Positions 5,737-8,700 of a stretch of DNA of 16,660 nt are shown here, piece by piece. Positions within the stretch are counted from its first letter, which is position 1. Each line of letters begins with the position of its first letter. Position numbers and translations under genes: made by a program. Under the pieces are notes generated by a model. It worked only from the letters and a program-made list of their open reading frames with translations. It had not been told where the DNA came from and ran no database searches. Source of the stretch: a virus (Duplodnaviria; Heunggongvirae; Uroviricota; Caudoviricetes); IMG/VR virus record IMGVR_UViG_2728369188_000006, positions 1 through 16,660 of that record; one strand, 5' to 3'.

Positions 5737-8700
5737 ATGACCACTGTGAATAAAAAGTTAAAAAAAACTGCATCTGGCGCGATTACATGGTCGGTAATTG
5801 TTACCCAGATATTATCTCCAGTTTCTCTTTCTTTGATCCCAGCAAACAGTTTTGCATCATCTGGTAATAAAGATGTTACGCAAACTTATGCCAGCGATGA
5901 GCATGCAAATAAAGTGGCCTCATTTGCAGCAAGTGCAGGTCAGAGCCTGGCGAATAATAATGCAAGTAGTTTTGCTGTAAATACTTTATCAACTCAGGCG
6001 ACAAAAGAGGTCGTCGACTGGTTGCAACAATATGGCAATGCGCGCATCAAGCTTAATGTCGATGATTCTTTTTCCTTGAAGGATTCATCATTCGACTTTT
6101 TATATCCATGGCTGGATACTCAGGATTATGTGTTATTCAGTCAGACATCACTACATCGTACTGATGACCGAAATCAGACCAATATTGGTTTGGGGATTCG
6201 TCATTTCACTCCTGATAACGCAATGTTGGGTGCGAATGTTTTTTATGATTACGATTTAAGTCGCAGTCACTCTCGTGCAGGTTTTGGGGTTGAGTACTGG
6301 AGGGATTATTTCAGGCTTGGTGTAAATACCTATTTTGGTCTATCTGACTGGAAGAACAGTCGGGATATTGATGATTATCTGGAAAGACCTGCAAATGGCT
6401 GGGATTTTTCTGCTGAAGGATGGCTACCTGCTTATCCGCAATTAGGGGCATCTATTCAGTTTGAAAAATATTATGGTAAAAATGTCGGGTTATTTGGAAG
6501 CGATAACCTTCAGGAAAACCCTTACGCAGTTACTGGGGGAATTTCTTATACACCAGTTCCTCTGATTAAGTTTTCTGCACAGCATAAGCAAGGACAGAGC
6601 AACGTTCACGATACAACCTTCGGTGTTGAGTTTAATTATCGCCCGGGCGTTTCCCTGGCTGAACAGCTTAGCAGCGATAATGTTGCAGTTATGCGAGAAG
6701 TCCAGAATCGGCGTTATGATTTTGTTGAACGAAATAACAACATTGTTCTGGAGTACAAGAAGAAGCATGCACTGAAAATCAGTTTGCCAGAGTCTGTTCA
6801 GGGGGAGGGGGAATCAATCATCCCTGTAACACTGACAATCAACAATGCTAGTGGTGGTATCAAGTCTGTACAGTGGAATGATAGTGCATTCACTGCGGCT
6901 GGCGGCAAGATCAGTGGAAATGGCACATCATGGCAGATCACTTTACCGGCTTATAAAAGCGAAGGTGTAAATTCGTGGAATGTTGGAGCCACAGTCCAGG
7001 ATAACAGAGGCAATGTTTCCAACTATGCCGTTATGAATATCAGCGTTAATAATAGTGGTGTCTCGACAGCGGATTCATCTTTTACGCTGGATGGGGATTC
7101 GTCTCCGACGATCTCTGCTGATGGTCAATCCACTTATCCAATAGTATTAAGCCTGAAAGACAGTAACGGTAAGGCATTAACCGGACTGGCTGATAACATT
7201 GAAATGTCTGTGGAATTTACTGCGGATAGCAATAGTGCTCGACAGCGTGAAACGGTAACTGCTCCGTCATTAGGCGCGGTAGAGGAAATCTCTGCTGGTG
7301 TATATCGCTCTGTTCTGGCTGCTGGTTCGCAGGCTGGGACGGTACGTGTAACTGCAAAAGTTCAGGGAAAAACCTTTACTCTGAATATTAAGCAGGCAGC
7401 CGTTATTGATAGTGATGTATCGACAGCGGATTCATCTTTTACGCTGGATGGGGATTCGTCTCCGACGATCTCTGCTGATGGTCAATCCACTTATCCAATA
7501 GTATTAAGCCTGAAAGACAGTAACGGTAAGGCATTAACCGGACTGGCTGATAACATTGAAATGTCTGTGGAATTTACTGCGGATAGCAATAGTGCTCGAC
7601 AGCGTGAAACGGTAACTGCTCCGTCATTAGGCGCGGTAGAGGAAATCTCTGCTGGTGTATATCGCTCTGTTCTGGCTGCTGGTTCGCAGGCTGGGACGGT
7701 ACGTGTAACTGCAAAAGTTCAGGGAAAAACATTTACCCTCAGTATTAAGCAAACAGCAGCAACAGAACCTGATTCTGAGGTCAGTGCTGTTTTAACCGCT
7801 GCACCAGCAGAACAGGTAGTTGGTTACAATATCAATCTACAACTGGCAGTGAAGGATTCACAAGGAAATGCAATCACTGGTGATAACACTCTGAGCTTTT
7901 ATGCTCTTAACCAGGCAGAAGGAGTCGAGTTTGGGACTGTAACGGAAAAAGACGGTGTCTATAGCGCGACAGTAACTTCAAAACGAGCTGGTAAGATTAC
8001 TATCGGTGTTAAATCTGATAGTCATGATTTCTCAGGTGTTAAGAAAGAAATCACCTTTATTGAGGACCGGCAGCAGGTTACATTCTCTCAGTTTGAAGCC
8101 AGCCAAAATAATGCATTGGCTGATGGAAAACAGAGAAATATGGTAACTGTAAGCCTTGCGGACCGTTTCGGCAATGTTGTTCCTGGTTATGCTGTCACAT
8201 TGTCTTTACCAGCAGGGATAACTCAAGTTGGTGGTGAACATGCTGTTTCAACTGACGAAAATGGTAATGCTATTTTTGCGTTAATAAGCTCCACTCCGGG
8301 GTCTTACGTGATTACAGCTCATGCTGGTTCTCAGATGTCTACTGAGTTAACAGTGACCTTTGCATCAAATATGACCGGAGCTTCACTGTCACTGACGCCT
8401 GAAAGCAGTAGTTTAATTTCCAATATTCCTGCTAATGGTAAGGATGCAGCGGTATTAGATGTGCAGCTGACAAATACGAATGCGTCGGTCAATGGGCAAA
8501 AGATTCAGCTCATCACCTCATCTGAAGGATTATCTGTACCAACAAATATCGTGACTGATTCAACAGGGCATGTTTCTGTTCCGCTTACAACGGTGAAAGC
8601 TGGTGAGTACACGGTGACTGCACGGGTGACTGACGGTTCCCATAGCGTGGAATCTGGCAGCGTTAAGTTAACTTTTGTGCCCGATGTTGCTTCTGCAGAA

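Follow-up and report, generated by a model that had tools for sequence, protein, structure and literature searches.

A tandemly repeated Ig-like stalk domain of variable copy number in a predicted inverse autotransporter adhesin of a defective Escherichia coli prophage

Introduction

Periscope Proteins are surface-anchored single chains in which the number of tandem repeats differs between close homologues (PMC8201768; reviewed in PMC9704523). Whelan et al. (2021, PMC8201768) delimited the class by tandem repeats that exceed 50 residues and are at least 80% identical, and proposed intragenic homologous recombination as the mechanism behind the variation. Cluster 53 of their Dataset S1, labelled “YeeJ” (UniProt A0A192CME6), consists of E. 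coli proteins with a 119-residue Invasin_D3 repeat in 2–3 copies. In Group B Streptococcus, the alpha C and Rib proteins carry identical tandem Ig-like repeats, which homologous recombination adds or removes as whole repeats, and losses have been recorded under immune pressure (PMC9704523).

The inverse autotransporters (IATs) of E. coli named by Goh et al. (2019, PMC6714894) are FdeC, YeeJ, IatA, IatB/SinH, IatC and IatD; these authors found no evidence of a variable tandem-repeat number in IatC or IatD. For the Yersinia ruckeri proteins YrIlm and YrInv, work cited in that paper describes passengers with almost identical Ig domains, noted as a source of mis-assembly. Here, we describe a related adhesin gene with a tandem repeat, found in a stretch of viral DNA of 16,660 nt (hereafter “the window”, meaning the whole stretch analysed).

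Results

The adhesin and its prophage setting

The features of the locus are collected in Table 1. The Pfam family IAT_beta (PF11924) scores 338.4 bits on the adhesin (cut-off 22.3; residues 57–334), and barrel residues 97–341 match invasin 4E1T (1e-73) and intimin 4E1S (8e-63). By these matches the protein is assigned to the inverse autotransporters of the intimin/invasin family, which bears out the original prediction that the repeat lies in an adhesin-type gene; RefSeq labels it “inverse autotransporter beta domain-containing protein”. Its layout comprises an N-terminal hydrophobic stretch ending in “...ANSFA” that reads as a candidate leader, the β-barrel, and a passenger in which an iterated HMM built from the repeat unit counts nine Ig-like domains. 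Big_1 (196 bits) and Invasin_D3 (185.7 bits) each match the protein over multiple stretches. The domain next to the barrel resembles D00, matching intimin 6TQD over residues 342–441 (332–441 with our own HMM), whereas the six distal domains are just 18–23% identical to the repeat unit and show no repetition at the DNA level.

The adhesin thus shares with invasin (Y. pseudotuberculosis) and intimin (EPEC/EHEC) the barrel and the D00-like first Ig domain, as well as the Big_1/Invasin_D3 stalk domains (1CWV), but differs from them in having no detected C-type lectin-like tip: the C-terminal 181 aa match no lectin family, the last domain scores as Ig-like, and the distal end shows nothing recognisable as an adhesive tip. 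Nor was a LysM domain detected in the protein. A C-type lectin-like tip is present in intimin and invasin; many IATs lack one, so its absence is compatible with membership of the family. To our knowledge, tandem units of high identity are not a textbook feature of either invasin or intimin.

The gene resides on an E. coli prophage of the lambdoid type, which is defective. According to the annotations, the P gene is its left neighbour in every allele fetched with its upstream flank, and the adhesin and esterase genes together are inserted between P and the prophage’s ybcN/ninE/rusA region. A predicted terminator-like hairpin separates the adhesin gene from the convergent esterase gene; a promoter scan 5' of the adhesin gene gave a score not above chance. 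Among 5426 complete E. coli genomes, 561 (~10%) carry the gene, some of them under the strain labels ST131/O25:H4. Most of the alleles examined have an intact ORF; several strains have it disrupted by ISEc52 or IS66, or by a frameshift. A search of 50,697 phage records gave zero matches, and the sole match in a scan of one genome per species was a partial relative in E. albertii. No literature was found under six RefSeq protein accessions, and the two most relevant papers found on inverse autotransporters, ST131 and prophages treat FdeC or YeeJ rather than the prophage adhesin, which is without an assigned name among the E. coli IATs.

Table 1. Features of the adhesin locus, in window coordinates.
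Feature	Position	Strand	Evidence or remark
Lambdoid replication protein P gene	4786..5487	+	PHROG 109
Predicted inverse autotransporter (type Ve, intimin/invasin-like) adhesin gene, 1302 aa	5737..9645	+	ORF, Pfam, PDB matches
β-barrel translocation domain, aa 57–341	5905..6759	+	Pfam PF11924 residues 57–334; PDB 4E1T, 4E1S
Barrel-proximal Ig-like domain, D00-like, about aa 342–436	6760..7043	+	directly 5' of the repeat
Repeat unit 1, 357 nt, 119 codons	7044..7400	+	h1 7044–7062, core 7063–7373, t1 7374–7400
Perfect core, copy 1	7063..7373	+	
Unit 1, column 152	7195	+	A in the window (Asn, “ADNIEM”)
Internal junction t1-h2	7374..7419	+	marks arrays of at least 2 units; missing from one-unit alleles
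Repeat unit 2	7401..7757	+	h2 7401–7419, core 7420–7730, t2 7731–7757
Perfect core, copy 2	7420..7730	+	
Unit 2, column 152	7552	+	paralogous site, A in the window
Private T>C in tail t2 (unit 2, column 337)	7737	+	confined to the window among the alleles examined
Six further Ig-like domains, aa 672–1291	7750..9609	+	iterated HMM
Predicted bidirectional terminator-like site	9657..9677		GC-rich hairpin, T-runs on both strands; consensus scan
α/β-hydrolase (esterase) gene	9682..10725	-	usual right neighbour of the adhesin gene

The tandem repeat

A base-by-base comparison at an offset of 357 put the longest stretch without mismatch at 311 nt (7063–7373 = 7420–7730), and Tandem Repeats Finder reported one array at 7044–7751 (period 357, 2.0 copies, 97% matches, no indels, score 1360). 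The direct-repeat search returned 7044–7343 / 7401–7700, and neither search found any other tandem or direct repeat in the adhesin gene. Chance cannot produce a perfect direct repeat of 311 nt in a sequence of 16.7 kb. Aligned in register, the units show 10 differences over 357 nt (columns 6, 8, 15, 19, 331, 337, 340, 342, 352 and 353), all of them confined to the first 19 nt (head, h) or the last 27 nt (tail, t), leaving 97.2% identity in DNA (347/357) and 96% in protein. The 311-bp perfect duplicated core inside a 357-bp tandem repeat had therefore been predicted exactly, but the accompanying statement that the units are identical at the nucleotide level holds for the core and not for the whole units. 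The perfect core would be the substrate for homologous misalignment.

The array lies in frame within the ORF, since 357 = 3 × 119. A single 119-residue unit scores 42.2 bits against Pfam Invasin_D3 (gathering cut-off 33) over its residues 8–110, and the unit edges coincide with inter-domain linkers; each unit is accordingly of the Ig-like type originally predicted and, judged by this profile match, corresponds to one Invasin_D3 stalk domain, these being domains 2 and 3 of the passenger. An AF2 model of one unit, made from a shallow alignment of the adhesin’s own domains, is all-β and of low confidence (pLDDT 61.7). The best Foldseek matches to this low-confidence model are Ig-like domains (FdeC, InvD, InvE), none of them at E <= 0.001, and FdeC (4E9L) has a weak fold match only, with no match in sequence searches. 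The variable units belong to the membrane-proximal end of the stalk, the rest of which is non-repetitive.

Variation in copy number between strains

As had been predicted, copy number varies between strains: the comparison of alleles and of proteins reveals forms with 1, 2, 3 and 4 units, encoding 1183, 1302, 1421 and 1540 aa, in all of which the ORF stays open. The one-unit alleles (5132, Br_54, 2015C-4136CT1) have the structure h1-core-t2, the three-unit alleles are [h1..t1][h2..t1][h2..t2], and in the four-unit allele the internal unit [h2..t1] is present twice. These edge structures are exactly those predicted by unequal crossover, which argues that the alleles are its products. Moreover, unit number differs in three comparisons in which 3195 nt of flanking gene sequence show zero differences: the window and PAR (2 units) against 5132 (1), SK1144 and CU568-3 (2) against Br_54 (1), and 30224_1#355 (3) against GCA_021167335 (4). 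The changes are both recent and recurrent. Phase-variable on/off switching by frameshift was not encountered, the unit being 357 = 3 × 119 nt, so that length alone varies.

An 86-nt probe spanning the internal junction (7354–7439) matched 475 of the 561 gene-carrying genomes, at 841 places in all. By these figures, some 86 genomes would have a single unit or a truncated gene, ~110–140 two units and ~330–365 three, a census that draws on summary counts and on 60-row systematic samples rather than on full enumeration, in which junctions per genome conflate genomes with two loci (e.g. M114) and genome counts do not equal event counts, many three-unit alleles coming from clonally related ST131-type strains. 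At the protein level, at least 1000 contigs encode the 1183-aa form and 906 the 1421-aa form, while the 1540-aa protein forms a cluster with 27 member sequences and has nothing longer among the best bit-score matches listed. Two apparent cases of length change were rejected. A change within the ST131 clone was discounted because the 2-unit (SaT040, CU568-3) and 3-unit (Houston ST131) forms differ at 13–14 flank sites and have different P proteins, making them distinct alleles; and the array of L007, at first sight a 147-nt deletion, really has nine small indels in its third unit, from decay or sequencing error.

An old duplication with allele-specific cores

Between the window and the SK1144 allele there are 14 fixed core differences, each present in all units of its allele, and 0 position-specific core sites. 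The 46 nt of head and tail show the reverse, with 7 position-specific sites common to both alleles and 0 that are allele-specific. The same pattern of core and edges holds for the window against alleles 144, M114 and Z1323HEC0475. Overall, the alleles differ at 14–17 core sites, mostly synonymous (12 synonymous against 4 nonsynonymous codons), and the units within one allele agree at every one of them.

The t1-h2 junction and the position-specific edges are common to alleles up to about 6% diverged in their flanks, so the duplication must long predate the strain of the window. The original prediction had offered a very recent duplication or gene conversion to account for the likeness of the units; the age of the shared edges speaks against the former, and both the allele-specific cores and the shuffling at column 152 favour the latter. 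At this column, a comparison within the window’s haplotype (flanks 0–1 nt apart; complete genomes plus the window) gives, for units 1/2, G/G in AREA_492 and SCU-176, G/A in PAR and MS20645, and A/A in SCU-387 and the window. In unit 1, G encodes Asp in PAR and MS20645, the closest complete genomes, and A encodes Asn in the window. The corresponding protein classes are D/N on at least 515 contigs, D/D on at least 173, N/N on at least 150 and N/D on at least 1. The perfect 311-bp identity in the window is thus a homogenised end state, its closest relatives carrying one core SNP (G/A). Import of whole arrays by inter-prophage recombination could explain part of the between-allele pattern, in which divergence gathers in the array and some 50 nt on its left side; in-place conversion would then account for less than the pattern suggests.

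Discussion

Mechanism and alternatives

In our view, these data very probably reflect an old tandem duplication of one Ig-like stalk domain, followed by recombination between the units that both homogenises their cores and changes their number. The 357 nt of homology between units would allow misaligned homologous pairing. Non-reciprocal exchange, by gene conversion or by cycles of gain and loss, would keep the central ~311 nt alike within an allele, and unequal crossover or slipped-strand misalignment would add or remove whole units in frame to give 1, 2, 3 or 4 of them. The enzymology might be either RecA-dependent recombination or RecA-independent replication slippage. The 19-nt and 27-nt edges would stay unhomogenised because conversion tracts need flanking homology. 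By analogy with invasin, each unit would lengthen a rod-like stalk by about one Ig domain, some 4 nm, and a change in stalk length would alter the reach of the distal domains beyond the outer membrane.

A duplication made de novo and very recently in this strain’s lineage, the units being alike for lack of time to diverge, would account for the perfect core, and the one-unit alleles on the window’s haplotype could be its source. Nevertheless, we consider this highly improbable: copying a one-unit h1-core-t2 allele could not recreate t1 and h2, the edge differences of the window recur in two-unit alleles 0.4–6% diverged in their flanks, and the array of the closest relatives is already one of two units, told apart in the core by one SNP. 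Even less credit can be given to purifying selection on the protein or mRNA as what keeps the units identical without recombination between them. The unit’s protein sequence is indeed well conserved between alleles, but selection on the protein cannot synchronise synonymous changes in two copies, and the predominance of such changes among the 14–17 core differences means that selection at the protein level cannot explain the identity within an allele; one SNP, moreover, occurs in all combinations across the units.

The array could also owe its form in the window to assembly, either through the collapse of more than two units or through the homogenisation of G/A cores to A/A by bubble-popping or polishing. 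That the repeat troubles assembly, as originally predicted, is plain from the short-read assemblies that break in it (partial proteins of 633 and 640 aa); the perfect core is longer than typical short reads, those contigs listed as carrying the exact window protein come from draft assemblies (two with SPAdes-style NODE names), and other haplotypes carry 3–4 units. Against this, the complete genome SCU-387 has an A/A two-unit array on the window’s haplotype, all five of the same-haplotype complete genomes read have two units, and G/G, G/A and A/A are each found in complete genomes. Twenty-four complete genomes have a junction at least 99% identical, with one junction in each of the three listed; the exact window protein is on 80 contigs; and the private tail SNP at 7737 implies that the assembler kept the units apart. 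An artefact therefore seems unlikely to us, and the suggestion that the true copy number exceeds two finds no support.

A different question is whether the same mechanism yields length variation of any adaptive value, or is a selectively neutral side effect in a prophage cargo gene that is dispensable. Neutrality is a serious contender that we judge to fall a little short of an even chance. The gene is on a defective prophage, it is interrupted by ISEc52, IS66 or frameshifts in several strains, its range of 1–4 units is narrow, and no expression or phenotype data on the adhesin were found in the literature. Pointing the other way, most of the alleles examined retain an uninterrupted ORF, the mostly synonymous substitutions indicate purifying selection, every gain or loss preserves the frame and whole domains, and related variable Ig stalks show length-dependent phenotypes in other species (PMC8201768, PMC9704523).

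Relation to described systems

Among described proteins, the adhesin has the same family, species and Big_1-type passenger as the IATs of Goh et al. (PMC6714894). It is none of FdeC, YeeJ or IatA–D, which are ruled out by size (1183–1540 aa), prophage location and NCBIfam cut-offs: its scores fall below the whole-protein thresholds for intimin (338 against 1400), SinH (319/999), IatC (395/2400), YchO (271/508), Ilp (310/1125) and YrIlm (305/750). Like YrIlm and YrInv it is an inverse autotransporter with almost identical Ig domains in its passenger, the N-terminal NCBIfam model of YrIlm giving 305 bits over its barrel region, the profile score being the sequence comparison made; those proteins are chromosomal in Y. 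ruckeri, whereas the adhesin is on an E. coli prophage. The alpha C and Rib proteins, which likewise gain and lose whole Ig-like repeats, differ in being Gram-positive and sortase-anchored with an unrelated repeat fold family and many more repeats, and selection by antibody has been shown for them.

The closest parallel is with the Periscope Proteins. Their repeats have very high DNA identity and are autonomous globular domains in a rod-like stalk, with a surface anchor at one end and a functional, adhesive domain projected at the other. The adhesin has repeats of 119 residues that are 96% identical, a DNA identity of 347/357 nt (97.2%) with a 311-nt perfect core, a predicted anchor at one end in the form of the β-barrel, and 1, 2, 3 or 4 units in homologues at least 90% identical, including pairs with identical flanks; by the sequence-based criteria of the class, it would be counted as one of them. 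The adhesin is very probably cluster 53 of the published dataset (PMC8201768), although A0A192CME6 is absent from the protein-cluster listings of the adhesin. Cluster 53 is probably not the true YeeJ: yeeJ of K-12 has no tandem repeat, so the label was probably a borrowed gene name. The survey recorded 3 proteins with 2–3 repeats in this cluster, compared with the 1–4 found here across hundreds of genomes, and the classic periscopes SasG, Rib and Sgo_0707 reach 13–15 repeats in Dataset S1, compared with 1–4 repetitive Ig domains in the adhesin (PMC8201768).

Implications

The length variation is of a known kind and introduces no new principle; the class has already been described and the adhesin family is probably already catalogued there. 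One practical consequence is that the length of this gene is untrustworthy in short-read assemblies, and pan-genome or typing pipelines will split one gene into “alleles” of 1183, 1302, 1421 and 1540 aa, or into fragments. It is a speculative idea, and one we think rather doubtful, that unit number (1–4) may be selected to match envelope thickness (O-antigen or capsule) or host niche, with prophage transfer and rapid intragenic recombination making the adhesin horizontally mobile and length-tunable, and that the 19-nt and 27-nt edges may mark the minimal flanking homology of conversion tracts in vivo. The locus offers a clean, well-populated natural case in which a bacterial surface protein displays both unequal crossover and concerted evolution, with every intermediate represented among ~560 complete genomes.

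Structure of the repeat array and its product

The adhesin gene of the window, an inverse autotransporter (intimin/invasin-type) ORF at 5737-9645 (+), does contain a 357-bp tandem repeat with a perfect 311-bp core, as the original prediction had it. When the window is set against a copy of itself shifted by 357 nt the longest perfect run is 311 nt (7063-7373 = 7420-7730), and Tandem Repeats Finder finds one array only, at 7044-7751 (period 357, 2.0 copies, 97% matches, no indels), which a second repeat search of the window corroborated. The array is in frame within the ORF (357 = 3 x 119). 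Each unit consists of a head (h, the first 19 nt), a core and a tail (t, the last 27 nt), and the 10 of 357 positions at which the two units differ are all in the head or the tail; one change in the unit 2 tail, T>C at 7737, is private to the window.

The 1302-aa product begins with an inverse-autotransporter beta-barrel (PF11924, 338 bits), whose residues 97-341 match invasin 4E1T (1e-73) and intimin 4E1S (8e-63), and Pfam places Big_1/Invasin_D3 domains after it. An iterated search of the adhesin protein with an HMM started from the repeat unit finds nine Ig-like domains C-terminal of the barrel. Domains 2 and 3 are the repeat units and come immediately behind a D00-like domain matching intimin 6TQD; the remaining seven are only 18-23% identical to the unit. 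The units had been described as Ig-like, and Invasin_D3 indeed scores 42.2 bits on a single unit (gathering cut-off 33). Since this match spans residues 8-110, the unit is one whole domain with its boundaries in the linkers. AlphaFold models the unit as all-beta, at low confidence (pLDDT 61.7), and the model's top fold matches are Ig-like domains, including those of FdeC, InvD and InvE, none of them at E <= 0.001. Domain searches of the protein found neither a LysM nor a C-type lectin domain, and the adhesin scores below each of the NCBIfam cut-offs compared (intimin, SinH/IatB, IatC, YchO, Ilp and YrIlm). The gene matches PHROG 7803 (function not known).

Features of the window and disrupted alleles of the adhesin gene in other strains
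Feature	Position	Strand	Remark
Split integrase	ORFs 1-492 and 588-1127	minus	Sign of defective prophage (region 1-3860)
ISEc21, IS110 family	2456-3532		Nested in an IS3-family element, whose remnants flank ISEc21
Repeat unit 1	7044-7400		In register with unit 2
Repeat unit 2	7401-7757		In register with unit 1
Perfect GC-rich hairpin (GGGAGGGC..GCCCTCCC)	9657-9677		T-runs on both strands; adhesin and esterase genes converge on it
IS-disrupted or truncated alleles	AREA_494 (L012) ~2757-4284; O25:H4 18044 (L015) ~3563-5174; 2015C-4136CT1 (L010) ~4946; 09-02E

Variation in unit number

Of 5426 complete E. coli genomes, 561 have the adhesin gene, as judged with a probe covering the array and its unique flanks (6600-8200). 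The match spans are 1244 bp for one unit, 1601 bp for two and, in a third group, longer by one more unit. Among the alleles fetched, the arrays are exactly 357, 714, 1071 and 1428 nt and the genes 3552, 3909, 4266 and 4623 bp long (1183, 1302, 1421 and 1540 aa), so that the predicted copy-number variation is now demonstrated, with one to four units between strains. The longest forms at the top of the protein list ranked by bit score are likewise of 1540 aa (one cluster of 27 member sequences). An 86-nt probe for the internal junction (7354-7439), which has no match in one-unit alleles, matches 841 places in 475 genomes, with at most four places per genome. Estimated from these probe counts and from systematic 60-row samples, and with some genomes carrying two loci, about 86 genomes have a single unit or else a truncated gene, while two units are present in about 110-140 and three in about 330-365, the last class including strains labelled ST131/O25:H4. 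In the protein database, contigs with the one-unit protein number at least 1000; there are 906 with the three-unit protein and 80 with exactly the window protein. Because every length variant remains in frame, the array is not an on/off phase-variation locus. Strain M114, whose allele is 3 nt longer (3912 bp), has two junction-probe matches yet only two units at the adhesin locus; a second copy of the gene probably lies in another prophage.

It had also been suggested that such repeats are prone to assembly collapse, and that the true copy number might therefore exceed two. The general proneness is visible in partial proteins of 633 and 640 aa within the cluster, where contigs break inside the array, and the contigs listed with exactly the window protein come from draft assemblies, two having SPAdes-style NODE names. 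For the window array itself, however, the genomes examined give no evidence of collapse: the junction probe matches 24 complete genomes at >=99% identity, the three listed carry one junction each, all five same-haplotype complete genomes examined have two units, and SCU-387 has a two-unit A/A array (column 152, see below) identical in state to that of the window. In 327_BP0021 (L007), the third unit has nine small indels (95 nt in total, array positions ~608-883) and the gene is annotated as frameshifted, which could reflect either real decay or long-read homopolymer error.

The edges of the units indicate how their number changes. Every two-unit allele has the structure [h1-core-t1][h2-core-t2]; alleles with one unit, from three different backgrounds, read h1-core-t2; those with three units read [h1..t1][h2..t1][h2..t2]; and in the allele with four, both internal units are [h2..t1]. 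The one-, three- and four-unit structures are exactly the reciprocal products that misaligned exchange within the core would give if whole units were gained or lost by unequal crossover. In three pairs of alleles with unlike unit number, the gene is identical throughout the 3195 nt on the two sides of the array: window/PAR (two units) and 5132 (one), SK1144/CU568-3 (two) and Br_54 (one), and 30224_1#355 (three) and GCA_021167335 (four). Changes in unit number are thus recurrent, each having occurred without a substitution in the 3.2-kb flank. Either RecA-dependent recombination or replication slippage could be responsible, the choice between them being a matter of inference.

Homogenisation and age of the duplication

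Heads and tails are position-specific and common to different alleles: when diverged alleles are compared, 6-7 of the 46 sites in head and tail go with position, and 0-1 with allele. As these edges are common to alleles up to about 6% diverged in their flanks, the duplication is older than the divergence of the alleles. The cores behave in the opposite manner; SK1144 and the window have 14 fixed core differences, each common to all units of an allele, and no core site follows position. Such a pattern indicates that the unit cores evolve in concert, and protein-level selection cannot account for it, since 12 of the 16 differing core codons are synonymous. In strain 144, the most diverged allele, the units have 11 core differences, clustered at both core ends with none in the centre, the arrangement expected after a conversion tract. 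The 19-nt and 27-nt edges may have escaped homogenisation because a conversion tract needs flanking homology on both sides or, perhaps, by selection on different linkers.

At position 152 of the unit (column 152; 7195 and 7552 in the window) the process is directly visible. Within the window haplotype, where flanks differ by 0-1 nt, complete genomes are G/G (AREA_492, SCU-176), G/A (PAR, MS20645) or A/A (SCU-387), and the window itself is A/A; the corresponding protein classes occur on at least 173 (D/D), 515 (D/N), 150 (N/N) and 1 (N/D) contigs. Since all the other haplotypes have G in every unit, the simplest history would be a single G>A mutation that arose in unit 2 and was subsequently copied to unit 1, with the perfect 311-bp identity of the window as its end state. 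Transfer of whole arrays from one prophage to another may instead explain some of the differences between alleles. Haplotypes diverge mostly within the array and the ~50 nt left of it (gene ~1260-2021, window ~6996-7757): against two other alleles (L003 and L011) there are 34 differences in the 714 nt of the array and 12 in the remaining 3195 nt of the gene, which suggests a mosaic block exchanged between prophage alleles. Of the "very recent duplication or gene conversion" first proposed, then, gene conversion is favoured and the very recent duplication is not; that reading was mostly right, the correction being an old duplication kept identical by conversion.

As to function, ISEc52 (IS3 family) interrupts the adhesin gene independently at two sites, in or beside the array, and an IS66-family element truncates it in a further strain, so pseudogenisation is recurrent. 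With IS-disrupted or frameshifted copies in several strains, neutrality of the length variation is a live alternative.

Genomic setting

The window sequence is that of E. coli. Strain PAR and others have the adhesin gene at 99.9% identity, and colinearity between the window and PAR extends over the first 14.1 kb, as far as 14100. The prophage is defective, its integrase being frameshifted and IS elements being nested in its early region. Wherever upstream flank was fetched, the lambdoid replication gene P lies left of the adhesin gene; on the right, most alleles have a convergent alpha/beta-hydrolase gene, and ybcN-ninE-ybcO-rusA-quuD follow beyond it where that flank was fetched. With these conserved neighbours the adhesin gene looks like cargo inserted in a lambdoid prophage. 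The hairpin behind it is likely a bidirectional terminator. Within the lambda O-like replication initiator gene (ORF 3894-4568), annotated as frameshifted in PAR, are iteron-like tandem repeats of 19-23 bp (consensus TTTACCCGAATCAGGTAAAAAAG, 4212-4324), the expected place of a lambdoid origin of replication. An ompC/nmpC-like porin gene (minus strand; region 13235-15932), without ~70 N-terminal codons, abuts a tail-protein ORF (14148-15932, PHROG 1419); the junction near 14100-14220 looks like a deletion that removed the lysis and head genes.

Among 50,697 phage records the adhesin gene has no match, and in the species-representative genomes scanned the only relative outside E. coli, a partial one, is in E. 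albertii. In strain NBRC 107761 it is 80% identical over residues 1-237 and stops where the contig does, which may be a further assembly break within or ahead of a repeat.

Relation to known adhesins

Goh et al. 2019 (PMC6714894) described seven groups of E. coli inverse autotransporters; membership of the adhesin in these was rejected, as its size and location do not fit. No characterisation of the protein was found in the literature searched. It shows all the sequence-based hallmarks of the Periscope Proteins (Whelan et al. 2021, PMC8201768), among which inverse autotransporters are explicitly counted (PMC9704523): tandem repeats of >50 residues at >=80% identity, high DNA identity, and variation in repeat number among >=90% identical homologues. 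Their cluster 53 (Dataset S1), an E. coli protein with 2-3 copies of a 119-residue Invasin_D3 repeat, is entered as 'YeeJ' (UniProt A0A192CME6), and since K-12 yeeJ proper has no tandem repeat, this entry is very probably the prophage adhesin gene under a borrowed name. The repeat is a textbook instance of a described class, probably already catalogued. Its main worth is practical, for the assembly and annotation of the adhesin gene, but it also provides a well-populated natural data set on concerted evolution.
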